A stretch of DNA of 64,000 nt. Origin: Patescibacteria group bacterium (GTDB lineage Bacteria; Patescibacteriota; Minisyncoccia; Moranbacterales; DUUL01). Both the position numbers and the translations under genes were made by a program. Positions 514 through 18,531 of this stretch are shown one piece after another (the first letter of the stretch is position 1; the number at the start of each line of letters is the position of its first letter). Location: contig JAYEIQ010000004.1 in NCBI GenBank assembly GCA_034660175.1, forward strand, positions 4,152 to 68,151, written 5' to 3'. The notes beneath the pieces were generated by a model that searched no databases, had not been told where the DNA came from, and was given only the letters and a program-made list of their open reading frames with translations.

Positions 514-600
514 TGGATTTTTTTGCTTGTGAGATAGAATCAAAGTATTATTTTTAATTTGTTAGTTTCGTGAAAACAAATTAATCATAAAAAACAGAAA

Positions 601-759
601 AATGGAAAAGGTAGTGATGAAACTGAAAAAAGTTAATCGCTATAGTTATTCTTTAATTATTCCAAAAGAATTTATTGCAAAATACAGTTGGAGAGAGCGT
701 CAAAAATTTGTAATCAAGGATAAGGGAGGAGGGGCTGGAAATAAGAGATTGGAAAAATA
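601..759 (+). CDS. AbrB/MazE/SpoVT-type (swapped-hairpin) small DNA-binding protein
   Basis: 52-aa ORF (below ORF-track cutoff): MEKVVMKLKKVNRYSYSLIIPKEFIAKYSWRERQKFVIKDKGG...; pattern K-V-x-x-x-YS-l-IP-x-E-f and +E+QK-f-V-I matches the AbrB N-domain fold; paralogous to ORF 5923..6105. Confidence 0.5.
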
Positions 760-862
760 GATAGCTATCAAGTCTGGATTTTGTCATTGTTTCAATGTAT
801 ACTTATCGTATGTGACGCTGGATTGTGTCAGATGTGGTTTGTTATGATAAAAATAATAAAAA

Positions 863-1413
863 ATGAATATAAAAGGATACATCAAAGAATCAATTAAAGT
901 AAAGCAAATCATTCTTGAGAGTGAGAAGTTGATGGAGTTATTAAAATTTTGAATGGATGTTTTGTTGATTTGGGAAGATGTTGGTTACTTGGAATGGCGG
1001 AAGCATTGTTGATTCACAACACTTTGTTGCTGAGATTGTTGGCAGGTACAAGTTGGGGCGAAGGGGCTATCCAGTAATTGTTCTAACTACAGACACTTCC
1101 ATTTTGACTGCTTGGACAAATGATTATGAATACGATACTGTATTTGAGAGGCGAATTGAAGCTTTAGGAGAAGAGAAGGACGTTTTTTTGGAATTTCAAC
1201 TAGTGGTAATTCAAAAAGTATTGTTTTAGGTGTTGAAAAAGCGAAAAAAATGGAATGAGCACAGTTTATTTGTTGGGCAAAAATGAAGGTGAGCTGAAAG
1301 ATTTGGCAGATATATCGATTATTATTCCATCGAAAAACACACTAAGGATTCAAGAGGCATATATAATGATAGTTCATATTATTTGTGAAGAAATTGAAAA
1401 GAGTTTTAAATAA
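863..1413 (+). pseudogene. gmhA: phosphoheptose isomerase (GmhA/DiaA-family SIS domain) pseudogene with multiple frame disruptions
   Basis: GmhA-like segments spread over three frames: MNIKGYIKESIKVKQIILESEKLMELLKF (then TGA at 950), ...[39 protein letters not shown]...[19 protein letters not shown] (frame shift in T7 run 1183-1189), [19 protein letters not shown] (shift in A7 run 1244-1250), GMSTVYLLGKNEGELKDLADISIIIPSKNTLRIQEAYIMIVHIICEEIEKSFK; NGGSxxDSQHF, ISTSGNS and C-terminal motifs align to E. coli GmhA; N-terminal region additionally shortened. Confidence 0.65.
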
Positions 1414-1418
1414 AAAGT

Positions 1419-2936
1419 ATGAAAAAAGAAAACAGAAGATTCTTTAAAATTATTAAAAGATTTGATAAGAGAAGCATCTGTGTAATCGGGGATTTGATGC
1501 TTGATCAATTTATTTGGGGAAAAGTTAAGAGGATTTCCCCAGAAGCTCCAGTTCCGGTTGTGCTTGCGCAGAAAGAGACCTTTGTCCCTGGTGGTGCAGG
1601 TAACACTGCATTTAACATCGCATCTCTGGGAGGTAAAGTTACTTTAGTTGGTGTTGTTGGTGATGATTTATGTGGTGAACAATTGAAAAAGGAGCTTGAA
1701 AAAAGGAGAGTAAATGTTATGGGGATTGTTGTTGACAAAGGAAGACTAACCACACAAAAAACTAGAATTGTGGCAGAGAATCAGCACGTTGTGCGTGTGG
1801 ACAGGGAAAATGTTGAGAAGGTTGATGCTAAGATTTCAAAAGATATTTTTGATTTTGTCGTTAAGAACATTACGTATTTTGATTGTTTGGTTGTTTCTGA
1901 CTATGCGAAAGGGATGATTGAGAAAGAGTTGGCGCAGGGACTTATTGGACTTGCCAAAGAAAATAAAAAAATGATTGTGGGGGACATTAAACCTTGGCAC
2001 GCGTCGTTTTTTCAAAATATAGATCTCATTACTCCAAATTTAAAGGAAGCTCAAGAAATTTCAAAGAGAGATAATGTTGAGAGGATGGGGAGGGTTATTC
2101 AGTCGAAATTACATTGTAATGTTATCATCACTAAAGGCGCAGGAGGATTAAGCGTTTTTGAGGGTAAAAATATTAGTAATTTCTCAACTCAAACGAGGGA
2201 GGTCTATGATGACCCAGATGTCTATTATAAAAAAGATGACAGTCCCTTGACCAAGGCGGATTTGGCGTCAGAGAAAGTTCTTCTTGATCGTCTCAAAGAA
2301 TTTGGTGATTTTGGATTTTTGTCTGAGGAAAGTGCCGATGATAAATCAAGGTTGGACAAAGAATATACTTGGATTATCGATCCATTGGATGGAACAATGG
2401 ACTTTATTCAAAAGACAGGAGAATTTTCAGTGATGGTTGGTTTGGTGAAAGGTGGGTTGCCAGTAATGGGTGTGGTCTATCAACCATCAATTGAGAAAAT
2501 ATATTTTGCAGAGAAAAGCAAAGGGGCTTTTGTGCGAATCGGTCAGGGAGCTGAGATCAAACTACGAGTTTCGCAAGTTTCTGACTTGAAGGAGGCTCGT
2601 TTGGTGGTGAGTCGCAATCACTTGAGCAAAAGGGATAGCTCTGTTGCAATTGATATGGGATTGGGTAACTATGTTCAAGCAGGCTCGAATGGAGTGAAGA
2701 TGTGTTTTATTGCTCAGGGGAATGCAGAACTGTTTTTCAACTCATGGACAGGATTTGGTGAATGGGACAGTTGTGGTCCGGATTTGATCTTGAGAGAGTC
2801 TGGAGGAGTGGTAACTGGTATGGATGGAAAACCGCTCAAATATAACAAAGAAGTTCCAAAAAGCGATCGTGGCATTGTTGCCAGCAACGGATTGCTTCAC
2901 GATGACATAATCAACAACTTTGCAAAAAGGAAATGA
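1419..2936 (+). CDS. fusion protein: HldE domain-I-like heptose-7-phosphate kinase (pfkB family, C-terminally truncated) fused to CysQ/inositol-monophosphatase-family phosphatase
   Basis: N-terminal 300 aa align to E. coli HldE kinase domain (ISPEAPVPVV, PGGAGNTAFNIASLGG, VVSDYAKG, TPNLKEA ... TQTREVYD); C-terminal half aligns to CysQ (EVYDDPDVYYKKDDSPLTKADLASEKVLL..., WIIDPLDGT, WDSCGP); junction at shared VYD; ribokinase GAGD motif absent. Confidence 0.7.
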   Translation: MKKENRRFFKIIKRFDKRSICVIGDLMLDQFIWGKVKRISPEAPVPVVLAQKETFVPGGAGNTAFNIASLGGKVTLVGVVGDDLCGEQLKKELEKRRVNVMGIVVDKGRLTTQKTRIVAENQHVVRVDRENVEKVDAKISKDIFDFVVKNITYFDCLVVSDYAKGMIEKELAQGLIGLAKENKKMIVGDIKPWHASFFQNIDLITPNLKEAQEISKRDNVERMGRVIQSKLHCNVIITKGAGGLSVFEGKNISNFSTQTREVYDDPDVYYKKDDSPLTKADLASEKVLLDRLKEFGDFGFLSEESADDKSRLDKEYTWIIDPLDGTMDFIQKTGEFSVMVGLVKGGLPVMGVVYQPSIEKIYFAEKSKGAFVRIGQGAEIKLRVSQVSDLKEARLVVSRNHLSKRDSSVAIDMGLGNYVQAGSNGVKMCFIAQGNAELFFNSWTGFGEWDSCGPDLILRESGGVVTGMDGKPLKYNKEVPKSDRGIVASNGLLHDDIINNFAKRK

Positions 2937-4618
2937 TTAGTCCTCATGGTGGCAAATTGGTTGACAAGACTTTTGTTGGTGATGCAAGTGCTGAGACTGC
3001 TCGATTGAGAAAGATTGTGGCAACATTGAAAATTGGTCCGAATCAAATTCAAGATATTGTCAATATAGCTCAAGGGGTGTTTTCGCCCCTTGATGGTTTT
3101 TTGAGGGAGAACGAATTTCTATCTGTTTTGAATGAAATGCGTTTGAATGATGGGACGGTTTGGCCGATTCCTATTGTTTTAGATGTTCTAACGGCTGAGA
3201 AAAAAAGATTAGAACAACAAGAAAAAATTCTTTTGATTGATTCAAAAAATCAGCCAGTTGCTTTTTTGTCGAACTCTTCTTTTTTTCGTTTTGATAAAGA
3301 AGAATTTGCTTTGAAAGTTTTTGGAATCACGGATCAAAATCATCCTGGAGTCAGGGATGTTTTTGAGATGAAGGAATTTTTAATTGGAGGGAAGATTGAG
3401 TTGATTGGGCAGTTTCGAGAAAGTGTTGTCCTAAAGAGTCCTGCAGAGATTAGAAGTGAATTTTTGAAGAGGGGTTGGGAATCAATTGTTGCTTTTCAAA
3501 CTCGCAATGTTCCACACAGGGGGCATGAATTTTTACAGAAGGAGGCTTTAAAAAAAGTAGACGGATTGTTTGTCCAGCCAGTGATTGGAGAAAAGAAAAT
3601 GGATGATTTCAAAGATGAGTATATTATTGGGAGCTATGAGATTTTGATTGAAAAGCATTTTCCTGCTGGTAAGGCAATGCTTGGTGTATTGCCACTCAAA
3701 ATGCGTTATGGTGGACCAAAGGAAGCGTTGCTTCATGCAATCATTCGCAAAAATTTTGGTTGCACCCATTTCATTGTTGGTCGTGATCATGCTGGGGTGG
3801 GTGATTTCTATCATCCAACGGAAGCACAGGAAATATTTGAACAATTTGGTCCAAGCGAGCTTGGAGTTGAGATCTTGAAATTTCCAGAGGTGGTGTTCGA
3901 CAAAGAAAAAGGAAAACACTGTTTTGTTGACGAATGCTCTGAATCGAATAGGATAAGGTTCAGTGGCACAAAGTTGAGAGATTTTGTGAAAAACAAGAAA
4001 GAGCCTCCAAGACACTTGATCAGGCGTGATGTGTTCGAGTTGCTCTCGAGTAGTGATAATTCGTTAGTTGATGAAAATTACAAAATGAAAACAAGCAAAA
4101 GAGGATTTGTTCTTTGGTTCACAGGATTGTCTGGTGCAGGAAAAAGCACTGTTGCGGATTTGGTTTTTGAGCATCTGAGGGGTAATGGCACCAGAATTGA
4201 GAGGCTTGATGGTGATGTTGTCCGGGAGAATTTGGCTCAAGATCTTGGTTTTTCCAAAAAAGATCGTGACGAGAACATTCGTCGAATTGGTTTTGTAGCA
4301 GACCTGCTTTCTCGCAATGGAGTGGGAGTGATTGCTTCTTTTATTTCTCCCTACCAAAAACAGCGAGATGAGCTGCGCAAAGAAGTCGAGAATTTCATTG
4401 AAGTTTTTGTGAATGCTCCTTTGGAGATCTGTGAGGAGCGAGATCCAAAGGGAATGTATAAAAAAGCTCGAGCGGGTGAGATCAAGAACTTTACTGGAAT
4501 TTCTGATTCCTATGACTCACCAAAAGACCCAGACATTGAACTGAGAACTGACAAGGGAACACCAAGAGAGTGTGTACAGCAGGTGATAGATTATTTAGAC
4601 GAAAAAGGCTTCATTTAG
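2933..4618 (+). CDS. bifunctional sulfate adenylyltransferase (ATP sulfurylase) / adenylylsulfate kinase (PAPS synthase)
   Basis: N-domain motifs QTRNVPHRGHEFL and VGRDHAGVGDFY (ATP sulfurylase); C-domain P-loop GLSGAGKSTVA and APS kinase-like region; ATG overlaps upstream TGA (ATGA) indicating translational coupling. Confidence 0.85.
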   Translation: MISPHGGKLVDKTFVGDASAETARLRKIVATLKIGPNQIQDIVNIAQGVFSPLDGFLRENEFLSVLNEMRLNDGTVWPIPIVLDVLTAEKKRLEQQEKILLIDSKNQPVAFLSNSSFFRFDKEEFALKVFGITDQNHPGVRDVFEMKEFLIGGKIELIGQFRESVVLKSPAEIRSEFLKRGWESIVAFQTRNVPHRGHEFLQKEALKKVDGLFVQPVIGEKKMDDFKDEYIIGSYEILIEKHFPAGKAMLGVLPLKMRYGGPKEALLHAIIRKNFGCTHFIVGRDHAGVGDFYHPTEAQEIFEQFGPSELGVEILKFPEVVFDKEKGKHCFVDECSESNRIRFSGTKLRDFVKNKKEPPRHLIRRDVFELLSSSDNSLVDENYKMKTSKRGFVLWFTGLSGAGKSTVADLVFEHLRGNGTRIERLDGDVVRENLAQDLGFSKKDRDENIRRIGFVADLLSRNGVGVIASFISPYQKQRDELRKEVENFIEVFVNAPLEICEERDPKGMYKKARAGEIKNFTGISDSYDSPKDPDIELRTDKGTPRECVQQVIDYLDEKGFI

Positions 4619-4645
4619 AGTTGAATACTTGGTCTGATTTTTGGA

Positions 4646-4666
4646 CAGCCTCCAGGCTGGTTTTCG
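4646..4666 (+). terminator. putative intrinsic terminator after PAPS synthase gene
   Basis: CAGCC-TCCA-GGCTG hairpin followed by GTTTTCG. Confidence 0.35.
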
Positions 4667-4739
4667 TTAGGAATGTGATATATAATGTTTTTTATAGCAG
4701 AAAAATAGAGAAGTGAACATCAAGCAGTAAACAAGTGCC

Positions 4740-5858
4740 ATGAAGGTTTTGTTGTTAAATTATGAATTTCCACCAATTGGAGGGGGTGCAGCCACTGCCA
4801 CCCTCAATTTATTGAGGGAGTTTTCCAAAAGAAACGATGTTGAAGTGGATTTGATCACTTCATCTGTTGATAAAGAGAGGCAGGAGCAATTCAGTGAGAA
4901 TATCAAGATATATTTTTTGGACATTGAAAAAAATGGAAGATTGCACAATCAATCCAATGCTGATCTTTTGAAATATAGCTGGAAGGCTTGGAGACTTGCA
5001 AGGAAGCTGAGAAAGGAGAAAAAGTATGATCTGATCCATTCGTTTTTTGGAATTCCGTGTGGATTCGTTGCGATGTTGTTAGGGATGTCATATGTTGTGT
5101 CACTGCGAGGGTCTGATGTTCCGTTCTACAGTGAAAAATACAAATTGTTGGACACTTTGCTTTTTCAAAGATTGAGCAGAAGAATCTGGAAAAAAGCAGA
5201 TGTTGTTATTGCGAACTCTGAAGGTTTGAAAAAACTTGCGTTAAAGAGCTCACCAAAGCAAGAAATTGGTGTGATTTACAATGGGGTGGATACGGAAATT
5301 TTTGCTCCATCACAAAAAAAGCCAGAGGAGTTCACAATTATTTCAACTTCAAGACTTGAAAAACGCAAAGGGCTTGAATTTTTAGTTGAAGGGTTTGGAA
5401 AATTTAACAAACAATACAAGGACAGTAGATTGATCTTGATTGGTGGTGGTGATCAAGAGAATAAGCTTAGAAAAATATCTCATGATTTGGGTGCTGAGAG
5501 TGTAGTTGATTTTGTGGGCGTTCTTGATTTAGGCGAGCTTTCAAAGTGGTATAAGAAAGTGGATGTTTTCTCGTTGCCTTCATTCAACGAAGGCATGAGC
5601 AACTCTCTTTTGGAAGCAATTGCAAGCGGGTTGGCAATTGTTGCGACTGACACTGGAGGAACAAAAGAGTTAATAAATGATTCAAACGGTATTATTGTTG
5701 AAAAAGGTAGCAGTGAGGATGTTTTCAGGGCGTTTGAGAAACTGTACACGGACAGGCAATTGCTTGAATCAATGAAAGAGAAAAGTCGAGAAAAAGCACT
5801 TGTGATGAGTTGGATAAATATGTCAAATCAGTATTTAGAGGTATATAAAAAAGTATAG
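4740..5858 (+). CDS. GT-B glycosyltransferase, family 4-like
   Basis: 372 aa; N-terminal EFPPIGGGAATATLNL (GT4 N-domain), C-terminal FSLPSFNEGMSNSLLEAIASGLAIVATDTGGTKELI (Glycos_transf_1 E-x7-E region). Confidence 0.8.
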   Translation: MKVLLLNYEFPPIGGGAATATLNLLREFSKRNDVEVDLITSSVDKERQEQFSENIKIYFLDIEKNGRLHNQSNADLLKYSWKAWRLARKLRKEKKYDLIHSFFGIPCGFVAMLLGMSYVVSLRGSDVPFYSEKYKLLDTLLFQRLSRRIWKKADVVIANSEGLKKLALKSSPKQEIGVIYNGVDTEIFAPSQKKPEEFTIISTSRLEKRKGLEFLVEGFGKFNKQYKDSRLILIGGGDQENKLRKISHDLGAESVVDFVGVLDLGELSKWYKKVDVFSLPSFNEGMSNSLLEAIASGLAIVATDTGGTKELINDSNGIIVEKGSSEDVFRAFEKLYTDRQLLESMKEKSREKALVMSWINMSNQYLEVYKKV

Positions 5859-5896
5859 AGCTAGCTCTATACCTAGCTCTATACCCATGTTATAAT
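5854..5896 (+). promoter_or_regulatory. operator-like repeat array plus extended -10 upstream of AbrB-like ORF
   Basis: 18-bp perfect palindrome TATAGAGCTAGCTCTATA (5854-5871) followed by a direct repeat of the half-site TAGCTCTATACC (5874-5885), then TGtTATAAT extended -10 (5888-5896) 27 nt upstream of start 5923. Confidence 0.4.
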
Positions 5897-5922
5897 CATG
5901 CTGTAGAATTGAAACGAAAACT

Positions 5923-6105
5923 ATGGCTCAAACAAAAAAAGAAGAAAGAATAACAAGAAAGCTTCAAAGAGTAGGTAGGGGGAGAACTTACAGCATCACA
6001 ATTCCAATCGAAATTATTCGTTCTTTTGGTTGGAAAGAAAAACAAAAGTTGGTTTTTGAAGCAGATAAAAGAAGAAATGTGATCAAGATCAGAGATTGGG
6101 AATAG
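5923..6105 (+). CDS. AbrB/MazE/SpoVT-type small DNA-binding protein (paralog of 601..759)
   Basis: 60 aa: ...RKLQRVGRGRTYSITIPIEIIRSFGWKEKQKLVFEADKRRNVIKIR matches swapped-hairpin AbrB N-domain pattern (R+V...-IP.E+R......+..+......I.I). Confidence 0.55.
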   Translation: MAQTKKEERITRKLQRVGRGRTYSITIPIEIIRSFGWKEKQKLVFEADKRRNVIKIRDWE

Positions 6106-6142
6106 AATATTAATTAATTTGGAGAGATAACAATAAACTTCA

Positions 6143-6859
6143 ATGTTGAAGCTGATTAAAGACAACTGGGCCAAACTAGCTGATCAATTGGCGGGCAAGA
6201 AGCTTTACTGGTTCAAGAGTCCTTCTGGGATCTTACTTCTGGGTGCCACCGAAAAGATCTTAAATAAATATTGTAGAGGAAAAGTTTTGGATGTTGGAGC
6301 AGGGAGATTGGCATACAAATCATTGCTAGAGAAACATTGCGAGGAATATAAAAGCATTGATTTTAAGGCAACCAGTCCTGAACTTGATTTTGTTGGTGAC
6401 GTACAAGACATGGAAGTTTTGAATGATGATCAATTTGACACAGTTTTTTGTTCTCAGGTACTGGAACATATTCCAGAACCTCAAAAAGCAATGAACGAGA
6501 TCAGTCGAATCTTGAAACGCGGTGGAAAGGCGATAATCTCAGTTCCTTTTTTGGGGTATTTACACAATGAGCCTTATGATTTTTTTCGTTATACGAAACA
6601 TTCTTTGAGATTTATTTCTAAGAGAGCGGGATTTGAAGTTGTGGAAATAAATGAGGTTGGTGGATTGTTTTCCTTTCTCGGCTACATTTGGTCTACTTTT
6701 TTTATTGGGTTATTTGCTGGAATTCCATTTTTGGGATATATAGTATTGTTAGTAAATATTCCGCTTTCATATTTTTTTATTTTACTTGATGTTGTTACGA
6801 TGAATAAGAAACTGATGCCATTGAACTATCTTTTTATTCTTAAAAAAAGGGATGTATAA
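6143..6859 (+). CDS. class I SAM-dependent methyltransferase with C-terminal hydrophobic segment
   Basis: motif I VLDVGAGRLAYKSL, FDTVFCSQVLEHIPEPQKAMNEISRILKRGGKAII (Methyltransf_11-like); C-terminal TM-like stretch. Confidence 0.7.
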   Translation: MLKLIKDNWAKLADQLAGKKLYWFKSPSGILLLGATEKILNKYCRGKVLDVGAGRLAYKSLLEKHCEEYKSIDFKATSPELDFVGDVQDMEVLNDDQFDTVFCSQVLEHIPEPQKAMNEISRILKRGGKAIISVPFLGYLHNEPYDFFRYTKHSLRFISKRAGFEVVEINEVGGLFSFLGYIWSTFFIGLFAGIPFLGYIVLLVNIPLSYFFILLDVVTMNKKLMPLNYLFILKKRDV

Positions 6860-7961
6860 AATAGGGTTTGTTGTAAGAGCAATAAACAAGGGTGGAGGTG
6901 TAAAAATGGTTGTAAAAAATTTGCTGAAAAAAATTGATTTGTTGATGTTCACAAAGAGAGATTTGCAATTCATTGTCTATGCTGACAAGGAATATGATTT
7001 CTTGAGAGGATTGAAAAATATTAAAGTGGAAATTATTAAAAAACACAATGTGCTGCTGTGGGATAATATTTATCTGTATTGGAAACTAAAAGGAGATGGT
7101 TTGGATTGTGTTGTTTATCCCAAAAATGTTATCCCTCCTTCAAATCTCTCTTTAAAGTGCAAAAAGATGATTATTGTTCACGATTTAGCACATTTCAAAC
7201 AAGGTCTTAATGCATATAAATTTTGGGATGTTGTTTATATGAAAATGATGATAGGTGCTTCTTGTAGAAAAAGCAACCATATATTTTCAATTTCAGAGTT
7301 TACTAAAGAGAAAATAGTGAAAGAATTTAACATGAATGAAAGTAAAATCACGGTAATTCATGAGGGGGTAGAAAAAAAATTCAAAGAAATAAATAACAAA
7401 AAATTATTAAGCGAGGTGGTTGATAAGTATGGATTACAATTGCCTTTTTTTCTATATCCTGGATCAATCAGCCCGCGGAAAAATATTCTCAGAATTTTGG
7501 AGGTTTTCAATAATATCAAACATGAGATTCCTCACATGCTCTATTTTACGGGAGCGCGAGGGTGGAAAAATAAAGAGGTTTGGGAATATATAAGAGAAAA
7601 AAATTTGCAAAAAAGAGTTAAAAAAATAGGATATGTCAAGGAGAATGAACTCCCAATCTTTTATAATCTTGCAGATCTGTGTTTGTATCCAAGTCTCTAT
7701 GAGGGTTTTGGGTTGCCTATTCTTGAGGCACAGGCATGTGGGTGTCCCGTATTGACGTCCAATGTTTCAAGCTTGCCGGAAGTTGCAGGAAATGGAGCTG
7801 CTATTGTTGATCCATACTCAACGGAAGATATAAAAAAAGGTATATTGAAAATACTCAGAGACGGTAAATATCGAGAGGTGTTGGTAAAAAGTGGTATGGA
7901 GAATGTAGGAAGGTATAGCTGGAAAACATCTGCGAAGAAGATTGTTGAAAAAGCATCTTAA
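6852..7961 (+). CDS. GT-B glycosyltransferase, family 4-like
   Basis: 369 aa; C-domain motif YPSLYEGFGLPILEAQACGCPVLTSNVSSLPEVAG; start overlaps upstream gene by 8 nt. Confidence 0.8.
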   Translation: MYKIGFVVRAINKGGGVKMVVKNLLKKIDLLMFTKRDLQFIVYADKEYDFLRGLKNIKVEIIKKHNVLLWDNIYLYWKLKGDGLDCVVYPKNVIPPSNLSLKCKKMIIVHDLAHFKQGLNAYKFWDVVYMKMMIGASCRKSNHIFSISEFTKEKIVKEFNMNESKITVIHEGVEKKFKEINNKKLLSEVVDKYGLQLPFFLYPGSISPRKNILRILEVFNNIKHEIPHMLYFTGARGWKNKEVWEYIREKNLQKRVKKIGYVKENELPIFYNLADLCLYPSLYEGFGLPILEAQACGCPVLTSNVSSLPEVAGNGAAIVDPYSTEDIKKGILKILRDGKYREVLVKSGMENVGRYSWKTSAKKIVEKAS

Positions 7962-7979
7962 ATTTAGGTAAAATCTTTT

Positions 7980-9994: not shown

Positions 9995-11198
9995 CATTCA
10001 CTACTTTAACGAGGCTTTGTATCCTGGCATGTCGGCAAATAAAGTTGCAAGAGTAGAGATGGCCAATTCATTCTTGAGGGTTGATAAGGTTGAAGGAGTG
10101 TTTTTTTGGTTTCTCAGTAATCGATATTTTTTTAACGAAAGGTCCTGTTTTGCAAATCAGTCACTGGATAAAGGGGTTACCCCTAAGAGAGTTTGGGTAC
10201 CTTTTTTCTCTGACCCTCTTGAAGTGACTGGAACAAAGATTGATAAGGCTGTCAGATTTGTAACAAAAAGGGTATTGTTTCTATGGGCTCTAGTTTTTTT
10301 TGCTATAAAAAGATTTGAAAAAAGTGACCTGGTTTTCATTAGAGGAGAACAATTTGTTCTTGCTTTTTGTCTGGGGGCTTTATTGAAAAATGTGAAATTT
10401 TCTTTTGAAGTTCACAATTATGAATTCGGAAAATTTTTTTTAAGAGATTTTCTCTATAGGAGAGCCAGCAAAAAGGCGAACGTTATAATTGTCATATCTG
10501 GCTATTCAAGAAATCACATGGTCAGAAATGGTGGTATCAAAAGCAGTGCAATTGTGAACCTTCCAAGCGGAGTTAATATCCAGAGATTCTCTGAACTTAG
10601 TGGAGACAATGCAGACTATGATTTAAGATTGGAGATTGGTGCTAGAGAAAATGCTAAAATAGCCATCTATACTGGAAGTTTACATAAGAACAGAGGGATA
10701 GAAGACATTTTGTTCTGTGCTAAAAAAACTCCCAACATCGAATTTGTTATTGTGGGAGGTAATAAGAGTCAAATAGAAGAGTATTTATCAAAACCTGATG
10801 GTGATGCAAAAAATATTCATTTTGTTGGCTATAAATCTAATAAATTGATTCCATCTATTGTAAGTCAAGGGGACGTATTGTTGGCGCCATATTCAAAAAA
10901 AATTAAAACTGTTATGCATATGAGCCCAGTGAAACTTTTCGAATATGCAGCAGCTGAAAAACCAGTGGTGGTTTCTAATATATCAGCTATAAGAGAGATT
11001 TTCAACGATGACGAGGTTAATTATTTTACTCCTGATGATAGGCGTGATTTGCTGAGATGCACAAGAGAAGTTTTCGATAACTATGATGTTTGTCTAGCTA
11101 AAGCAGGAAGGGCAAAAAGAAAAGCTGAGCTCCATTCTTGGGATAATCGAGCGAAAACAATCTTTAAATTATTAAAGAAGGATAATGAACAAAAATAA
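9984..11198 (+). CDS. GT-B glycosyltransferase, family 4-like
   Basis: 404 aa; C-domain APYSKKIKTVMHMSPVKLFEYAAAEKPVVVSNISAIREIF (Glycos_transf_1-like); overlaps neighbours at both ends. Confidence 0.7.
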   Translation: MKYNIHYFNEALYPGMSANKVARVEMANSFLRVDKVEGVFFWFLSNRYFFNERSCFANQSLDKGVTPKRVWVPFFSDPLEVTGTKIDKAVRFVTKRVLFLWALVFFAIKRFEKSDLVFIRGEQFVLAFCLGALLKNVKFSFEVHNYEFGKFFLRDFLYRRASKKANVIIVISGYSRNHMVRNGGIKSSAIVNLPSGVNIQRFSELSGDNADYDLRLEIGARENAKIAIYTGSLHKNRGIEDILFCAKKTPNIEFVIVGGNKSQIEEYLSKPDGDAKNIHFVGYKSNKLIPSIVSQGDVLLAPYSKKIKTVMHMSPVKLFEYAAAEKPVVVSNISAIREIFNDDEVNYFTPDDRRDLLRCTREVFDNYDVCLAKAGRAKRKAELHSWDNRAKTIFKLLKKDNEQK

Positions 11199-11910
11199 AT
11201 TTGATTTGCAGAATAATCAATACAATTTTCCATATCACTATCTTGTTAATTTGAGAGAATATTCGAACTATAAGGAGCTTTCCTGGGGAATAATTTACTA
11301 TGCTTATATGAAGTATACAGTAGGGTATGTTTATAAGTCGGGCTGTAAATCATTGTTAGACGTTGGCTGTGGTGATGGGAGGTTGATAAGTGAGCTTGCT
11401 TCCAGTGATAGCAGTGGGAGTTATGTGGGGGTGGATCTCTCCGAATCGGCTATATTGTTGGCCAAGGCAATGAACCAGAATCTTAAGAATGCTAAGTTCT
11501 TACTGAAAAATGTTGGTCAGATAGAGGGAGAGTTCGACATCGTTGTGTTGAATGAAGTCTTGGAGCATATTCCTGACGAAGATCTTGGTGTTTTTACCGG
11601 GAACGTCATGAATAAGGTTAAATCAGGTGGTGTGTTAATAGTAACTGTCCCTTCGGTTAACGTGAAACTCAACGAGAAACATTTTAGGCATTATAATCTT
11701 GAGATGCTAAGAAAGCAGTTCGAGAAATTAAAATTACTAGAGAATGAAACAAAATATCTTTTTAAGAAAAATCTTTTTTACAAAATAATTAGAATATTTG
11801 CAAAAAGATTTAGATGTCCAAAATTGGAGTTGTTTCTGGCAAAAAAATTTTTATTTAATGCCAGAGATAAAAACTGTACCGACATTTTTGTTGTTTTTAA
11901 AAGAAAATGA
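11185..11910 (+). CDS. class I SAM-dependent methyltransferase
   Basis: LLDVGCGDGRLISELA (motif I), FDIVVLNEVLEHIPDED, SGGVLIVTVP. Confidence 0.7.
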   Translation: MNKNKFDLQNNQYNFPYHYLVNLREYSNYKELSWGIIYYAYMKYTVGYVYKSGCKSLLDVGCGDGRLISELASSDSSGSYVGVDLSESAILLAKAMNQNLKNAKFLLKNVGQIEGEFDIVVLNEVLEHIPDEDLGVFTGNVMNKVKSGGVLIVTVPSVNVKLNEKHFRHYNLEMLRKQFEKLKLLENETKYLFKKNLFYKIIRIFAKRFRCPKLELFLAKKFLFNARDKNCTDIFVVFKRK

Positions 11911-11913
11911 ACC

Positions 11914-12810
11914 ATGAGTAATAATTTTATTAGAAGAACTTGTTGTCCTGTTTGTGGAGGAAGAAAGAGAAGGGCTATTTATTTAAAGTCTTTCTCAGAT
12001 GACGATATTTGGGATTATTTGAATGAATTCTATGAGTCGAAAATCTCCAAGGACATTATAAAAGATGATTTTTACAGCATTGTAAAGTGTAAGAATTGTA
12101 GTTTGTTGTACCAGGAGTATATACTCAGTGATAAAAACATGTATTTGCTGTATGAAAATTGGATTTCCGCAGAAAGTAGTCTCCAGAAGAAAATGGTCTC
12201 TGATATTAAATTGTTTGAACAGTATGTTCTTGAGCTTAGGAGAATTTATTTGTTTCTCAAAAAGATGCCACATGAGATTAATGTTTTGGAGTATGGAATG
12301 GGGTGGGGATTCTGGTCAAGATTGGCCAAAGCATTAAATTTTAAAGTAACTGGAGTTGAGCTTTCCGAATCCAGGGTTGAATTTGCTAGGAGGAATGGAG
12401 TTAAAGTGATTGATGATATAAAAAAAGAATTGGATTGTGTTTATGATTATGTTTATTCGAATCAGGTTTTTGAGCATCTAACAGAACCAAAGAAAGAATT
12501 GATTGAATTGGCTAGAGTTTTGAAGCCAGGAGGCATTATAGATATCAAGGTTCCTAATTGTCAAAATTTTGAGAAAAAATTTGGTAAAATTAATTGGAGA
12601 TTAGGATCAAAACCAGTTCATCCACTAGAGCACATAAACTGTTTCAGTCGTCAATCTTTGAAGATATTAGCTAATCAAGCCAAGCTAAGTCTTGTTAGGC
12701 GTCCGTATTCTTTCGCGTGCTTCGGGATAAATTCATGTATAAAGGGTCATATCGAGTATATTAACGATGCATTTTTTTCAACAAACGTTTATATGAGGAA
12801 GAATAAGTAG
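11914..12810 (+). CDS. SAM-dependent methyltransferase with N-terminal Cys4 zinc-ribbon
   Basis: CCPVCGG ... CKNC zinc-ribbon; MTase motifs VLEYGMGWGFWSRLA, VFEHLTEPKKELIELARVLKPGGII. Confidence 0.65.
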   Translation: MSNNFIRRTCCPVCGGRKRRAIYLKSFSDDDIWDYLNEFYESKISKDIIKDDFYSIVKCKNCSLLYQEYILSDKNMYLLYENWISAESSLQKKMVSDIKLFEQYVLELRRIYLFLKKMPHEINVLEYGMGWGFWSRLAKALNFKVTGVELSESRVEFARRNGVKVIDDIKKELDCVYDYVYSNQVFEHLTEPKKELIELARVLKPGGIIDIKVPNCQNFEKKFGKINWRLGSKPVHPLEHINCFSRQSLKILANQAKLSLVRRPYSFACFGINSCIKGHIEYINDAFFSTNVYMRKNK

Positions 12811-12831
12811 TAAGAGTATAAAGAAAGTGTC

Positions 12832-14145
12832 ATGAAGAAAACAAAGAAGTGGATTAAAAACAGATTGGGAACCAAAAACAGGGAAAGATTTTTTTTTCTT
12901 TTCAGGCTAATCAAATATCTCAGGAAACAGACAAGGAGAATTTTCAGAGATCTTGGATCTGATGGTAGGTCAGAATTATTGCTTCCTAGTGAAGAATATT
13001 TCATTGAAGACAAGAATGTCTTTTTCGGTTATTATGATAAAAGTCCTTTTAGTGATAATGGAGAAGTTATTCTGGTACAAGTTGCTAAAGGTCAAAACAA
13101 ACATCCTCAAGTGGGTGATGAATTGATTGTTGGCTTTTTTTGCAGGCAGGCAGGCTCTTCTGGAAGAGGAATTGTTGAGTTAGGCAGGACTACCACATGG
13201 TGCTGGCAACAAGGTTGCAGATTGCAGTGGTTTCCTGGGGATGGGAGCAAAAAAATTATCTACAACAAATTGATAAATAAACGGTTTTCCTCGGTGGTTC
13301 AAGACACAGAAAGCAAAAGAGTGGTTAAGTCGCTTAGTTTTCCTGTGTATGATGTTGATCCAAGCGGGTCTTGTGCCTTAACATTGAGTTTTTCCAGACT
13401 ATATCGGTTAAGGCCAGGGTATGGCTATGCTGGGATTATTGATGAGACAATAGATGAAAAGATACCGTCTAGTGATGGAATCTGGCTTGGAAATATCAAG
13501 AAAAACGAAAAGAGTCTTTTATTAAGTTTAGAAAAAATTTCACAGATGGATTGGAATGAGAAGATGGTTGGGGCACAGCACTATGTAAATTTTATTTCTT
13601 ACAACAAGGATGGTAGTAAGTTTGCTTTTTTGCACGTTTGGGAAGGGGGGGAGGGGAGATCTGTGAGGTTAATGATTTTTGATTTTGCAAGAGGTGAGCT
13701 ATCTGTTGTTGGACAAGGTCATGAGATGGTTTCTCATTACTCTTGGATTGATGATAGTTCAATAATTTTTACATCATTAGCGAAAAAAGGATATGGAATA
13801 TACTACACATACAATACAATCTCAAAAGAAACTATAGTTGTAGGGGGGAACGAACTGACTGGAGACGGGCATCCGAGTGCTTGTGGTGATTCCTCTCTTT
13901 TCATTACAGACACGTCTGCTGATGAATATGGTGAGCGAAAATTGATTCTATTCGATGGACTTAAGGGCAAAAAGAGAGAACTTTTTAGGTTAGTCGATCC
14001 GATTGGATTTTGGGGTGAGGTGAGGTGTGACTTCCATCCAAGGTGGGATAGTTCTGGGCGCTATGTTTGTATTGATTGTCCTGTAAGTGGGAAAAGGAGA
14101 ATGTCGGTTTTTGATCTCAGTGTTGTTCTGAGGGATTTTTCTTGA
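12832..14145 (+). CDS. hypothetical protein (possibly beta-propeller-like), part of glycan island
   Basis: 437-aa ORF, no confident family; repeated hydrophobic/Gly-Asp turns; contains in-frame G7 tract at 13645-13651. Confidence 0.4.
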   Translation: MKKTKKWIKNRLGTKNRERFFFLFRLIKYLRKQTRRIFRDLGSDGRSELLLPSEEYFIEDKNVFFGYYDKSPFSDNGEVILVQVAKGQNKHPQVGDELIVGFFCRQAGSSGRGIVELGRTTTWCWQQGCRLQWFPGDGSKKIIYNKLINKRFSSVVQDTESKRVVKSLSFPVYDVDPSGSCALTLSFSRLYRLRPGYGYAGIIDETIDEKIPSSDGIWLGNIKKNEKSLLLSLEKISQMDWNEKMVGAQHYVNFISYNKDGSKFAFLHVWEGGEGRSVRLMIFDFARGELSVVGQGHEMVSHYSWIDDSSIIFTSLAKKGYGIYYTYNTISKETIVVGGNELTGDGHPSACGDSSLFITDTSADEYGERKLILFDGLKGKKRELFRLVDPIGFWGEVRCDFHPRWDSSGRYVCIDCPVSGKRRMSVFDLSVVLRDFS

Positions 14146-15331
14146 GGGCAAAGTAATTATAAAAAGTTTGGAATACAAAAAAGATAATCGAAGAGATTAC
14201 CCCACCCAATACTCCAACAAGAGGTATAAGCAAAAGATATGAAACAAATACAAGTAACATAGCAAGAATTCTGCTGTGGTTAATCTCCTTGTTCATATTA
14301 TTCTTGATTAAGAGAGAAAGGGTTATGTTATACGAAAAATAGAATGGTATAACAATGAGATATATTTGTGACAAAAAAACAACGTCTTCATATCCTGGTC
14401 CATAAAGTAGTGTGACTGGGTATTTTATTATTGGAATTATCATTAAAGGAATAATGAACGACAGGGCAAATGGTTTGTAAAAATATTTAAGAGTTATTGA
14501 CAGATCTTTGTAGATTTTTGGCAGTACTGACTCGATGGTCCCCTTGATAAACTTGAAAAAGATATCGCCCAGTTTCATTGTTAGACCATAAATTGCTATT
14601 TGCTCTGGAGCTAGGATTAATCCCATAATGAAAATATCTGCTTTACCAAAAACTATCCCTGATAAATTTGAGATTGTTAGAGCATAACTTTGCTTCTTCC
14701 AATGAATGTCTATTTTTCCATCTAATTTAAATGAGCGAGAAGATGTTATAAAAAATAATATATTGAAGAAGGATTGCACTGCTACATAACAAAAGACAAT
14801 CACCACCAAATTGTTACTGAAATTGCTAATTGCCAAAATCATACTCAACAGCAGAATTGGGTACAAAATGAGATTGTAGATTGTGAGTGTTTTGAAATCT
14901 CCTCGGCCTTTCAGAGCTGGAGTCCATGTTTTGAGGCTTGTTAGGAAAGGAAACAAGAAAGAGCATGCAATTAATGAGGTACCAATTGAACTTTTTTCTT
15001 GGAGCAGGAAGATGAAACCTATAAATAGAAGAAAGGGAACTCCCCAAAGGGAGTGTTTGAAAGAAAAGTAAGTTCCTTTTCTATAAACTCCATCATATCC
15101 TTGGGCAATTGACTTGACAATTATCGTATTAACTCCAGTGATGGAGATTAGGGAAAGCAGATTAAAGATTGACAAAACAAAGAGATATTCTCCGTATCTT
15201 TCTGCTCCGGCGATTCTTATAAAAAATACAGAAAGAGACACCCCGAAGAGTGCTCCTATCAAATAATTCGTGTTCGATAGAACAGCATTGGCGCCGTGTT
15301 TTTTGTTTTTTTCTATAAATTTTTTTATCAT
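14117..15331 (-). CDS. Wzx-like oligosaccharide flippase / polysaccharide biosynthesis protein (MOP superfamily)
   Basis: 404 aa, about 12 predicted hydrophobic helices throughout, MATE/Wzx-like architecture; located between GT cluster and GT-C transferase. Confidence 0.6.
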   Translation of the reverse strand: MIKKFIEKNKKHGANAVLSNTNYLIGALFGVSLSVFFIRIAGAERYGEYLFVLSIFNLLSLISITGVNTIIVKSIAQGYDGVYRKGTYFSFKHSLWGVPFLLFIGFIFLLQEKSSIGTSLIACSFLFPFLTSLKTWTPALKGRGDFKTLTIYNLILYPILLLSMILAISNFSNNLVVIVFCYVAVQSFFNILFFITSSRSFKLDGKIDIHWKKQSYALTISNLSGIVFGKADIFIMGLILAPEQIAIYGLTMKLGDIFFKFIKGTIESVLPKIYKDLSITLKYFYKPFALSFIIPLMIIPIIKYPVTLLYGPGYEDVVFLSQIYLIVIPFYFSYNITLSLLIKNNMNKEINHSRILAMLLVFVSYLLLIPLVGVLGGVISSIIFFVFQTFYNYFALKKNPSEQH

Positions 15332-15357
15332 CGCACTCTCTTATATTATGAGATTTG

Positions 15358-17391
15358 CTATTTACAATAAAAAAGATTTGGCCAAAAAAGATTTTTATTT
15401 TCATACCAGCCGACATAATTATACTTTTTTACGCCTAGATCTTTTGAAATATTTTCACAATTTTCCATTAAATAATCCAAGAGGTCCCTATCTAGCAAGT
15501 GGGCATAAGTTGTTACTAAGTAGCTCTCTCCTTGCTTCTTGCTCATCAACTCAAAGAAGTCAATGCTTTTTTTTGTCTTTTCATTTGTCAATTCCTTGCT
15601 TTTTCTCCGCAGTAAAAAATAAGTTACTCTTGGATTTGTTTGTAAATAATATTCTCCACTGTCTGTTATCACGAAGTCTCCATCTTTTTGGTTTTTGTTA
15701 ATGTGTTGATATATTTTTGAATATTCTGGAGCAATGGCTCTGCGGTGTAGCTCTGTTTTTCCGTAGTCATCGCTCCAAACGCTGGGCGATTCTTTGGTTA
15801 GACCTTGGATTTCTTTTATTGGTAGAAGTGGGTAAAACACGAATAATAGTGCCAGAAAGATGCTTATGAAAGCAGGAATAGCCTTGTTTCTTTTTTTTGA
15901 AAGAGCTTTTGTTATATTCTCGACAATAGAATAGAGTCCTAACATTGCAATACTATAGATAAAAGGTATCAAAAAGTAGCAATATCTAAAATCTTCGTAT
16001 CTATTTAATAAATATATGACAAAAAATAAGGGCACAAAAGTGAATAAAAGCAAATGGAAAGCTCCGAAATCTTTTTTAAGAAAACTCCTCCACAACAAGA
16101 AAAAGGTTCCAACAGAAAACGATAGATACATCAAAAAGGGGAATTTTGTGTATTTTGAAAAGAGGTATTGATAATATGTTTTTTCTGGATTTTTTATGTT
16201 CTCGTAGGATAAATGATTTAAAAACTGTTTACCAGTAATGGAAATATTTGTAATTCCTGTAATTTCTAAGATAATTACGCTAGCAAAAAACAGGAACCCA
16301 AGAGTGAGTAGCGCATTTCTTTTTTTGATTGTATTTTTAAGAATATTTTTATTGATTATCATTGAGAATATCCACGAGACTGGAATGAGAAGAAGCAAGA
16401 TTTTACTAGTTTGGTTTGCTTGGATTGCTCCTGTTACAGAAACTAGCAATAGAGATAAGCACATTGCTAGTGCTTTTTTGTTCCTATCATTCTTAATTAG
16501 AACTAAAAATAAATAGGAGAAATAAAAGGACAAAAGATAGAAAGCGAGAAAAGTAGTGTATGGACGGAGAAATCTGGCTAAAAAAACTGCAGGTGGACTA
16601 AACGCAAAACCAATTGATGTCAAAAGTGCTGGAATATTTCCAATTATTTTGCGAAGAGAAAAGAAGATAACTGGGATGAGTAATACTCCAAATATTGCTG
16701 GTATCAATCTTAGAGTAAAATTGTTTTGTCCGAATGTCTTTGTAGTTAGATAAGTCGAGCTGTTTAAGAAGAGACCCCTTCTGTATCTTTTTTCAGATTC
16801 CCCAGAAAGAAAATTCCATTTTTTAAATCCCTCGCCATGCTTGAGGCTTTCTATTACTTGTACATGCCACTTTTCATCGTGAAATATATCATTCTTATTA
16901 ATGTCGTGAAAGATAAGAAGTCCTTCCCACAAGATGATCGTAAAGAGCAGAAGGTAAATTAATCGGGCAATTTTTCTATTTGATGTCATTACGCGCTTTC
17001 TTTTCTGGTTTCTGTGTGTTAGTAGAACGATTGTGATTAAACTAAAAACAGAGAGTGTAAGAGAATATATTAAAAACAGATTATTTTCTGAGGAGGAGTG
17101 GTGAAGTATTAGAGCTATTATAATAAACAGGATAGAGGACAGAGCAAGTGTTATTGAGTCTACTTTTTCAAGGTTATTTCTCAATTTATATCTGTTCTGA
17201 ATCCCAAAGATGGTTAAGAATGCAACGAAGGCTATTAAGAATATGTTTATATTGATGTAGTAAGAGATTGAAAAGGGAAGTCTCCATTCAAACCAGAAAA
17301 AGACCAAGTATACAGTGATTGAAACAAGACACAAGTCTTTGATGATTACCCTTGATAATTCATTTTTTTCTTTATCTGTTTTTTTTTGCAT
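15358..17391 (-). CDS. GT-C fold membrane glycosyltransferase (PMT / ArnT-like, GT39/GT83-type)
   Basis: 677 aa, many TM helices; first extracytoplasmic loop contains HDEKWH (DE motif typical of PMT/ArnT); central region LIPAIFGVLLIPVIFFSLRKI...AFSPPAVFLARFLRPYTT PMT_2-like; about 130-aa N-terminal extension with 3-4 extra helices. Confidence 0.5.
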   Translation of the reverse strand: MQKKTDKEKNELSRVIIKDLCLVSITVYLVFFWFEWRLPFSISYYININIFLIAFVAFLTIFGIQNRYKLRNNLEKVDSITLALSSILFIIIALILHHSSSENNLFLIYSLTLSVFSLITIVLLTHRNQKRKRVMTSNRKIARLIYLLLFTIILWEGLLIFHDINKNDIFHDEKWHVQVIESLKHGEGFKKWNFLSGESEKRYRRGLFLNSSTYLTTKTFGQNNFTLRLIPAIFGVLLIPVIFFSLRKIIGNIPALLTSIGFAFSPPAVFLARFLRPYTTFLAFYLLSFYFSYLFLVLIKNDRNKKALAMCLSLLLVSVTGAIQANQTSKILLLLIPVSWIFSMIINKNILKNTIKKRNALLTLGFLFFASVIILEITGITNISITGKQFLNHLSYENIKNPEKTYYQYLFSKYTKFPFLMYLSFSVGTFFLLWRSFLKKDFGAFHLLLFTFVPLFFVIYLLNRYEDFRYCYFLIPFIYSIAMLGLYSIVENITKALSKKRNKAIPAFISIFLALLFVFYPLLPIKEIQGLTKESPSVWSDDYGKTELHRRAIAPEYSKIYQHINKNQKDGDFVITDSGEYYLQTNPRVTYFLLRRKSKELTNEKTKKSIDFFELMSKKQGESYLVTTYAHLLDRDLLDYLMENCENISKDLGVKKYNYVGWYENKNLFWPNLFYCK

Positions 17392-17461
17392 TTATGGTTT
17401 AATCATTGATATTTCTGTTATTTGTTGTGTGTTTCGAAAGAGCGTCTGATAAAGCCCAAGT

Positions 17462-18427: not shown

Positions 18428-18531
18428 TTTTATCTCTTAGTCCACGAGATGGGGTATTACCCAAAAAGATAAACGCACTATTTCACTTAGTGAAATAGTG
18501 CGTTATTTATGTAATTGTTTGTTGATGCAAG

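Follow-up and report, generated by a model that had tools for sequence, protein, structure and literature searches.

A candidate gene cluster for a sulfated, methylated cell-surface glycan, with its own supply of sulfate donor, in a Patescibacteria bacterium

The left part of a 64,000-nucleotide stretch of DNA from a Patescibacteria group bacterium (assembly GCA_034660175.1, contig JAYEIQ010000004.1, positions 4,152-68,151 of the forward strand; hereafter the window, to which all coordinates refer) carries a gene island that combines enzymes for the synthesis of the sulfate-donating compound 3'-phosphoadenosine 5'-phosphosulfate (PAPS), a sulfotransferase, four glycosyltransferases of the GT4 type, three S-adenosylmethionine (SAM) methyltransferases, a Wzx-like flippase and a membrane glycosyltransferase of the GT-C fold. 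A preliminary description had read such a parts list, together with a CysQ-like domain and two AbrB-like mini-proteins, from the letters of the DNA, and profile searches confirm it as genuine, as nearly all components score above curated thresholds and lie where they had been placed. Pfam was searched with every non-nested open reading frame (ORF) of at least 100 amino acids (aa) across the window, and the components were also scored against NCBIfam/TIGRFAM models with curated cut-offs. All gene, motif and synteny evidence is derived from sequence, from which substrates, linkage positions and O-methylation are inferred. The genes that carry the argument are the following.

2208-2936, plus strand: CysQ-like 3'(2'),5'-bisphosphate nucleotidase domain, fused in frame to an hldA remnant (Inositol_P 168 bits)
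2933-4618, plus strand: Sat-CysC, bifunctional ATP sulfurylase/adenosine 5'-phosphosulfate (APS) kinase, a PAPS synthase (PUA_2; ATP-sulfurylase 255 bits; APS_kinase 210 bits)
4740-5858, plus strand: glycosyltransferase GT4a (Glycos_transf_1 115 bits, Glyco_transf_4 78 bits)
6143-6859, plus strand: SAM methyltransferase 1 with a C-terminal hydrophobic hairpin (Methyltransf_11 55 bits; transmembrane-like segments at aa 174-220)
6852-7961, plus strand: glycosyltransferase GT4b (Glycos_transf_1 111 bits)
7980-8864, plus strand: PAPS-dependent carbohydrate-type sulfotransferase, cytoplasmic (Sulfotransfer_1 69.2 bits, gathering threshold 22)
8849-9994, plus strand: glycosyltransferase GT4c (Glycos_transf_1 78 bits)
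9984-11198, plus strand: glycosyltransferase GT4d (Glycos_transf_1 54 bits), by hydropathy with two hydrophobic segments at aa 90-134
11185-11910, plus strand: SAM methyltransferase 2 (Methyltransf_31 67 bits)
11914-12810, plus strand: SAM methyltransferase 3 with an N-terminal Cys4 zinc ribbon, CPVCGG...CKNC (Methyltransf_23 63 bits)
14117-15331, minus strand: divergent Wzx-like flippase of the MOP superfamily, 11-12 transmembrane segments
15358-17391, minus strand: GT-C fold membrane glycosyltransferase of 677 aa (PMT_2 28.1 bits, threshold 26.1; about 13-15 transmembrane segments)

The sulfate donor would be produced by the island itself. Sat-CysC scores 379 with TIGR00339 (cut-off 323), 244 with TIGR00455 (cut-off 139) and 523 with the fusion equivalog NF004040, short of the cut-off of 669; its translation shows the motifs QTRNVPHRGH, GRDHAG, GLSGAGKST and LDGD, and its reading frame begins 4 nt before the preceding one ends. 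As predicted from these domains, Sat-CysC can make PAPS from sulfate and ATP, and the CysQ-like domain can remove the inhibitory by-product 3'-phosphoadenosine 5'-phosphate (PAP). No cysH, cysI/J or cysD/N is present among the scanned ORFs of the 64 kb, which rules out an ordinary cys assimilation operon, and, as sulfate-reduction genes are missing nearby, suggests that the PAPS genes exist to feed sulfation.

The sulfotransferase, which like the GT-C enzyme passes its profile threshold, has neither a signal peptide nor a transmembrane segment. Its 5'-phosphosulfate-binding motif reads GAEKAGSSW (K17-A-G-S-S), with K17 and G19 invariant in the five closest homologues, and its 3'-phosphate-binding motif reads R109-x-P-x-x-R114-x-x-S117, with R109, P111, R114 and S117 invariant in 11 homologues. 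Against the PDB the family profile matches best an uncharacterised bacterial structure (3RNL, 7e-51), followed by the heparan-sulfate sulfotransferases 3-OST-1/3/5 and the NDST sulfotransferase domain (1e-27 to 1e-22), while cytosolic SULTs follow at 1e-11 or weaker. As these glycan sulfotransferases thus come far ahead of the small-molecule SULTs, a sugar is the most likely acceptor. The ORF is 100% identical to MEA2006619.1 from a Patescibacteria group bacterium metagenome-assembled genome (MAG), and the last 543 residues of the GT-C enzyme are identical to MEA2006626.1 from the same 97,619-bp contig of that MAG. A second assembly of the region, the Logan assembly of SRR26901924 (L003), is 100% identical without a mismatch over window positions 2908-12382 (9.5 kb), and the identical 677-aa GT-C enzyme is encoded on a Logan contig.

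Around the sulfotransferase lie the glycosyl- and methyltransferases. GT4a has an orthologue of 51% identity in locus L007, and homologues of GT4d are present in loci L037 and L042 of the candidate phyla radiation (CPR). Weak 'GT4-conflict' matches of 27-30 bits, which would place these proteins in a defence system, fall far under the Glycos_transf_1 scores of the same proteins, and this reading was rejected. Methyltransferase 1 is probably anchored in the membrane by its hydrophobic hairpin.

On the opposite strand, the flippase is recognised by its transmembrane topology and its homologues. It stays below threshold in Pfam (Polysacc_synt_3 21.0, threshold 23; Polysacc_synt 17.5, threshold 28.2), and by BLAST it matches with 70 bits proteins of L040 and L042 which themselves score 75-76 bits on Polysacc_synt. 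The GT-C enzyme, which the preliminary description had rightly credited with a DE motif, has PMT_2 as its sole Pfam family above threshold, marginally so, and GT39 as its NCBI product name. Its structural model displays four extra N-terminal transmembrane helices, a basic loop, a canonical GT-C core and a C-terminal extracytoplasmic alpha/beta domain. The motif D172-E173-x-x-H176 is invariant in six homologues, and the D172-E173 loop is predicted to face outwards, given an N-terminus inside and five helices ahead of the loop. Alignments with the homologues P0135 and P0136 span 98-99% of the 677-aa length; the NCBI gene call starts at Met135 (543 aa), and full-length homologues together with the Logan gene call of 677 aa indicate that the longer start is right and the 543-aa call too short. 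By sequence, the best PDB match is ArnT with an E value of 0.87. Searches by fold recover the GT-C fold and do not tell the PMT/ArnT type from the STT3/PglB, PglL and WaaL types. PMT/ArnT enzymes, of which a DE loop motif is characteristic, use polyprenyl-monophosphate monosaccharide donors, and en-bloc transfer of an oligosaccharide is the business of the STT3/PglB, PglL or WaaL types. Neither a match to STT3 in Pfam nor a WWDYG motif is found in the enzyme (the sequence contains no WWD), and the model TIGR03663 for Agl23, a PMT-like lipid-sugar translocator (PMC11182771), gives 35.2 bits, far under the cut-off of 126.25.

The layout of these genes, with the regulators, two uncharacterised proteins, the right border of the island and a gene beyond it, is completed by the following features.

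602-760, plus strand: AbrB/SpoVT-like mini-protein 1 (AbrB1) of 52 aa, a paralogue of AbrB2 (43% identity over 37 aa, E 8e-10)
5923-6105, plus strand: AbrB/SpoVT-like mini-protein 2 (AbrB2) of 60 aa (PF04014, MazE_antitoxin, 29.7 bits, threshold 24.7)
12832-14145, plus strand: U437, a cytoplasmic, mostly-beta protein of an uncharacterised family tied to polysaccharide pathways; last plus-strand gene
17462-18427, minus strand: U321, a membrane-anchored extracytoplasmic protein of an uncharacterised family, with one N-terminal transmembrane segment and a GC fraction of 0.306, like the GT-C gene
18472-18504, no strand assigned: terminator-like hairpin (15-bp stem, T-tract), where the island ends on the right
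24645-25961, plus strand: ugd, UDP-glucose 6-dehydrogenase, with three UDPG_MGDP_dh domains; outside the island

The plus-strand genes at 1419-14145 are closely packed, with start/stop overlaps of 4-16 nt at 2933, 6852, 8849, 9984 and 11185, which bears out the operon-like arrangement proposed before. The minus-strand genes converge on this operon, the 3' end of the flippase gene overlapping U437 by 29 nt, and altogether fifteen consecutive ORFs at 2208-18427 are intact, many with overlapping starts and stops. A palindromic hairpin with a 14-bp stem is located at 5851-5886, right where GT4a ends and ahead of the AbrB2 gene, and may be an internal terminator or attenuator that divides the plus-strand block into sub-operons.

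The island had been taken to end at 17,391. The hairpin at 18472-18504 divides U321 from upstream genes for surface proteins with fn3 and TSP3 domains, and GC shifts at the same place from 0.31-0.35 in U321, the GT-C and Wzx genes and most of the plus-strand operon to 0.40-0.44 past the hairpin, the remaining window having 0.38. Hairpin and GC step together argue for a unit U321, GT-C, Wzx, of which U321 is probably the first gene, and move the end of the island to about 18.5 kb; the island also includes U437. Surface-glycan loci are usually of lower GC.

U321 has no Pfam match, and U437 none in Pfam or NCBIfam. Counted in clusters at 50% identity, the family of U437 (including the proteins P0140-P0289) has 2,733 representatives at E<1e-3, with 911 reaching E<1e-30. 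Several of its His, Asp, Cys and Arg residues are invariant. GT2 domains are fused to some members and a Wzx to one, and weak PD40 propeller repeats were recognised in 6 of 40. Searched as a profile, U437 has no match among PDB sequences, and the pLDDT of its single-sequence AlphaFold2 model, 35, is too low for use. On this sequence evidence U437 is probably a propeller; it appears to act in the cytoplasm as an enzyme or a partner in polysaccharide pathways and is a candidate for a new enzyme family. A beta-propeller gene in L006, considered as a homologue, has no similarity to it.

At its left edge the island carries the remains of a different pathway.

863-1413, plus strand: gmhA (sedoheptulose-7-phosphate isomerase) pseudogene in at least three reading frames (SIS_2 match on one fragment)
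1419-2207, plus strand: hldA (D-glycero-beta-D-manno-heptose-7-phosphate kinase) remnant, from which the chimeric ORF 1419-2936 takes its start codon and its first 263 codons

In a tblastn search with GmhA of the relative L002, the window gmhA aligns in three different frames with 61-74% identity; two of the frame changes coincide with runs of one base (T7 at 1183, A7 at 1244), and recent pseudogenisation, slipped-strand switching or homopolymer sequencing error could each account for them. The hldA remnant scores 254 bits with TIGR02198, under the cut-off of 345, and covers profile positions 2-260 of 315. Its alignment ends at 'REVYD', where homologues go on with the catalytic 'xSGAGDT', so that a full-length PfkB fold with the C-terminal GAGD motif is not found in the hldA part. 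With at least three frame changes in gmhA and no catalytic motif in hldA, a functional heptose pathway is ruled out.

The preliminary description had assigned a CysQ-type PAP phosphatase domain to this ORF. The domain is present, yet as the C-terminal half of a chimera seen in no homologue. It is 50% identical to the stand-alone 280-aa protein P0036, which it enters at about residue 35-40, and it retains the metal-binding motifs LSEES, DPLDGT and WD. Homologues of the 505-aa chimeric ORF were drawn from 5.8 billion proteins, and the best 120 are all single-domain, either kinases of about 320 aa or the 280-aa Inositol_P protein; as none of the 120 has both domains and the kinase is truncated, a conserved bifunctional hldA-cysQ fusion that substitutes for GmhB is ruled out as well.

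L002 shows an intact order gmhA-hldA-gmhB-GT9-GT4, on our reading of the sequences the ancestral arrangement. We read the left border as a probable deletion scar that joins the sulfation module to what is left of an older heptose (gmhA-hldA) glycan cluster. Near the junction at 2208 (2150-2260) both parents carry a Y-x-D-like stretch ('EVYD' and 'KYHQD'), and this common stretch suggests a microhomology-mediated deletion. A GGGAGG followed by ATGATG is also located at the junction; the ATG pair is out of frame, which rules out an internal restart for CysQ. As no in-frame start exists at the junction, CysQ must be translated from the hldA start codon, a dependence that would account for an hldA remnant with its frame still open next to a gmhA already broken.

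Upstream of these remnants, AbrB1 has no Pfam match by itself. Its similarity to the paralogue ends after residue 37 or so, where the C-terminus diverges; by eye, a shifted frame near the GGGAGGAGGGG run appears to read '...EIRDWK', like the C-terminus of the paralogue, and AbrB1 may be frameshifted, too.

A cluster of this composition is not singular, as comparison with other genomes shows. A narrow alignment of the sulfotransferase family was used as query against 185,579 species genomes and retrieved 50 loci; Patescibacteria are represented by JTS-AC97, four Saccharibacteria and one Magasanikiibacteriota, and the other loci belong to many Chitinophagales and Saprospiraceae and to scattered other phyla. 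Orthologues of the sulfotransferase with 42-50% identity on two other Patescibacteria contigs (L004/L007 and L006) are found in GT4/GT2/methyltransferase clusters adjoining Wzx and PMT_2 genes.

Seven Bacteroidota loci have a GT-C-like gene as the immediate downstream neighbour of the sulfotransferase. Where the contig is long enough, in five of them, the next genes encode a membrane protein of about 800 aa, which in L020 Pfam assigns to YfhO, then a Wzx-like protein, in convergent orientation, and a GT4a-like protein. A module of GT4, sulfotransferase, GT-C-like protein (533-703 aa), membrane protein of about 800 aa, convergent Wzx-like gene and GT4 is conserved in Saprospiraceae/Chitinophagales MAGs (L012, L018, L020, L026 and L033), with a second sulfotransferase (Sulfotransfer_3 by Pfam) nearby in L026, and appears to be an undescribed sulfated-glycan system of Bacteroidota.

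The PAPS genes have a distribution of their own. Within 10 kb of the sulfotransferase they were found in four CPR loci (L037, L038, L040 and L042) and in the Chloroflexia locus L045, and in no Bacteroidota locus of the scan; in L001, a CPR-like contig found separately, CysQ and Sat are joined to a PMT_2 gene. Counting L001, at least five other Patescibacteria (CPR) loci thus have PAPS genes of their own next to sulfotransferases. The CPR cassettes differ in their parts, with Sat and CysC or CysD and CysN/CysC, and with or without CysQ. In the Saccharibacteria loci L038 (1770-6202) and L040 (4655-14437), a CysD-like gene and CysN/CysC (and CysQ) adjoin one to four sulfotransferase genes, and this PAPS route, which differs from Sat/CysC in the window, suggests that the CPR sulfation cassettes were assembled independently. 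Ugd adjoins the sulfation genes in L001, L007, L008, L038 and L042, a synteny that strengthens the earlier suggestion of a link between ugd and the island and makes ugd the likely supplier of a precursor from outside it.

Homologues of the window GT-C family itself, at 34% identity, occur in L057-L059, convergent to orthologues of GT4b (46%) and GT4a (42%) and two methyltransferases, the GT4b orthologue being the gene directly convergent to the GT-C homologue. No sulfotransferase is encoded on these short contigs. As the conserved core around this GT-C family consists of GT4a, GT4b and methyltransferases and lacks the sulfotransferase, sulfation looks like an add-on. A metagenome scan with the GT-C alignment returned only two near-identical loci.

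Taken together, a working cluster with its private PAPS supply is the best-supported reading of the island as far as sequence can tell, and we hold it somewhat more probable than not that the island is a self-contained cluster for a sulfated, methylated cell-surface glycan in this CPR bacterium. In the pathway proposed, a priming enzyme encoded elsewhere would start a polyprenyl-phosphate-linked sugar, for which the carrier should be available since the window holds peptidoglycan genes. The GT4 enzymes would extend the glycan on the cytoplasmic face, probably with residues derived from UDP-glucuronic acid via ugd, and the glycan would be methylated and sulfated in the cytoplasm; modification is placed before export because PAPS and SAM are cytoplasmic. 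Wzx would then flip the modified glycan, and on the outside the GT-C enzyme, through its D172-E173 loop, would move it to a surface acceptor, polymerise it or add a further sugar.

Several observations weigh against this pathway. The signature of the GT-C enzyme, a marginal PMT_2 match with a DE motif, points to enzymes that use single-sugar polyprenyl-phosphate donors and not to transfer of a whole oligosaccharide, and no GT2, including a donor synthase, was detected among the scanned ORFs. Neither was a priming phosphoglycosyltransferase, in agreement with the preliminary description, nor a Wzy, a WaaL/PglL, an LCP ligase, a chain-length regulator or a sulfate transporter in the window. On the side of PAP removal, the best NCBIfam subfamily of the CysQ-like domain, TIGR01331 with 165 bits, misses its equivalog cut-off of 228.8 (HisN 121, SuhB 72), the domain lacks about 35-40 N-terminal residues, the N-terminal helix, in whose place stands the kinase remnant, and the 505-aa chimeric product is not in the protein and gene collections searched, its junction at about 2208 being known from one assembly.

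The main rival concerns the GT-C step alone. Here the enzyme would not be the final en-bloc transferase and would instead transfer, like ArnT, PMT, YfhO or GtrC, a single sugar, possibly sulfated or methylated beforehand, from a flipped polyprenyl-monophosphate carrier onto a protein or wall polymer, with a ligase encoded elsewhere attaching the oligosaccharide made by the GT4 enzymes. The earlier proposal of a flipped lipid-linked glycan followed by a PMT/ArnT-like transfer had mixed these two transfer chemistries; its other half, a PAPS/sulfotransferase module within a GT4, methyltransferase, Wzx and GT-C cluster, stands. Single-sugar transfer would agree with PMT_2 as the sole Pfam family, with the name GT39, with an invariant DE loop motif as in PMT/ArnT and with the missing WWDYG motif and STT3 match. 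In L001, L006 and L007, moreover, PMT_2 genes adjoin GT2 proteins of 310-325 aa with one or two C-terminal transmembrane segments, the usual shape of polyprenyl-phosphate-sugar synthases. The Bacteroidota modules likewise pair the GT-C-like gene with YfhO, an extracytoplasmic single-sugar GT-C (PMC7389260, PMC8035078). Yet the window offers no such GT2 donor synthase, the flippase is of the Wzx type, which usually handles oligosaccharide units, and not of the GtrA/GtcA type, and GT4a and GT4b, with which the GT-C family shares close synteny, are cytoplasmic chain builders, so that we regard single-sugar transfer as a serious but rather unlikely account of this step.

A sulfated glycolipid is a clearly less probable product. 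A GT4 would in this case glycosylate diacylglycerol or a host-derived lipid, which is then extended, methylated, sulfated and flipped to the outer leaflet. Such a product would explain that no priming transferase is found in the window, and is in line with the hydrophobic segments of GT4d and methyltransferase 1 and with weak matches to the MGlcDAG synthase Mgs (GT4a, E 3e-20), to processive diacylglycerol glucosyltransferase and to IagA/BgsA (GT4d, E 9e-13). These NCBIfam scores are, however, far under their cut-offs and unrelated GT4 models match equally well; a simple glycolipid needs neither Wzx nor GT-C, and priming enzymes are often encoded apart from glycan clusters.

Least probable of all, and to our judgement close to dismissal, is a decaying remnant or partial assembly artefact that makes nothing, a locus in the course of being lost: the gmhA frameshifts, the hldA part without its catalytic motif, the CysQ domain without its N-terminal helix, the aberrant C-terminus of AbrB1 and a chimeric ORF not on record elsewhere would fit it, but the damage is confined to 600-2207, the heptose part, the fifteen ORFs at 2208-18427 and the motifs checked (CysQ, Sat/CysC, sulfotransferase and GT-C) are intact, and a second assembly is identical over 2908-12382 with the same 677-aa GT-C on a Logan contig.

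The nearest characterised system to the cluster preferred here is the xss cluster for synechan of Synechocystis PCC 6803, with two sulfotransferases, eight glycosyltransferases, Wzx, Wzy and a polysaccharide co-polymerase (PCP), a priming transferase XssP and a chromosomally encoded outer membrane polysaccharide export (OPX) protein (PMC8205485). Both clusters place a sulfotransferase amid multiple glycosyltransferases with Wzx and dedicated regulators, and the xss model, too, assumes that assembly and modification of the repeat unit take place in the cytoplasm, on a lipid carrier, before flipping. In contrast to xss, no Wzy, PCP/OPX or priming transferase was detected in the window cluster, which possesses a GT-C enzyme, three methyltransferases, its own PAPS synthase and a PAP phosphatase and belongs to a small-genome host that apparently is not a diderm phototroph.

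Compared with the three-component systems ArnC/ArnEF/ArnT (ArnT structures 5EZM/5F15), GtrA/B/C and CsbB/GtcA/YfhO (PMC7389260, PMC8035078), the island has no GT2 synthase and no flippase of the GtrA/GtcA type, but a Wzx-like one, four GT4 enzymes, methyltransferases, a sulfotransferase and a GT-C enzyme with four additional N-terminal transmembrane helices. It differs from Agl/Pgl en-bloc glycosylation (AglB/PglB) in that the GT-C enzyme has neither STT3 match nor WWDYG motif and that all Agl/Pgl NCBIfam scores are far below cut-off. Some archaeal N-glycans are methylated or sulfated.

Closest in gene content are the Saprospiraceae/Chitinophagales modules and the Saccharibacteria/Magasanikiibacteriota cassettes, where sulfotransferases of the window family (33-50% identity) have GT4, Wzx and GT-C-like genes as neighbours; in the CPR cassettes, as in the window, the sulfotransferase is co-located with CysQ plus Sat/CysC or CysD and CysN/CysC. 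Their GT-C proteins, with identities of 20-22% or no match by BLAST, come from other subfamilies, and several CPR loci differ from the window in a CysDN-type instead of a Sat-type sulfurylase and in two to four sulfotransferases. A literature search found no experimental study of the Bacteroidota or CPR sulfotransferase modules, and no description of sulfated glycans or sulfotransferase clusters in CPR/Patescibacteria.

Beyond the island, three genes for secreted or membrane-anchored proteins with a GC of 0.40-0.44 are located between its right edge and ugd (18532-23181, minus strand). One of the proteins has fn3 and Asp-rich repeats, another TSP3_bac and fn3 domains, and a 630-aa protein is without known domain; they could be glycan-receiving surface proteins, with no evidence connecting them to the glycan. 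Within the gene at 18532-19716, a 300-bp unit is present twice with 99% identity (18545-19129, minus strand), doubling a module of about 100 aa in the secreted fn3, Asp-rich (calcium-binding-like) protein, apparently through a very recent tandem duplication in this surface protein.

The window otherwise holds housekeeping genes: tRNA-Thr, tRNA-Gly, a release factor, ftsEX, mraZ/mraW, an ftsL-like gene, penicillin-binding proteins and a Mur ligase, as well as fmt, def, priA, nrdR, nrdD, frr, proS, mreBCD and yebC. Amid these, a two-domain rhodanese (sulfurtransferase; 36400-37266, minus strand) is the sole other sulfur-related gene of the window and has no evident link to the island.

Animals, algae and cyanobacteria are well-known sources of sulfated glycans, which have been little studied in other bacteria. 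That so small a genome has retained genes for PAPS synthase, PAP phosphatase and sulfotransferase along with at least ten further glycan genes argues that the product matters to the cell, where it may serve surface charge, adhesion to a host bacterium or protection. The hldA'-cysQ ORF is a clean example of a new gene start captured as one surface-glycan cluster replaces another. New, too, is the comparative pattern, with a sulfotransferase family wired to GT-C and Wzx in several phyla and CPR PAPS cassettes put together from different parts, and the loci provide a testable set for how bacteria export sulfated glycans without Wzy or WaaL.

A bolder and rather doubtful extension is that these loci represent an undescribed pathway across phyla, in which a carbohydrate sulfotransferase is the fixed partner of GT-C and Wzx, the GT-C enzyme delivers sulfated sugars or oligosaccharides made on a lipid carrier to the surface, and in CPR the module is accompanied by PAPS genes of its own (CysQ together with either Sat/CysC or CysDN/CysC). 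If so, the GT-C family with four extra transmembrane helices would be a new class of transferase or polymerase for sulfated glycans, and CPR bacteria, otherwise without use for PAPS, would gain a polyanionic coat resembling glycosaminoglycans, with a possible part in their attachment to host cells.

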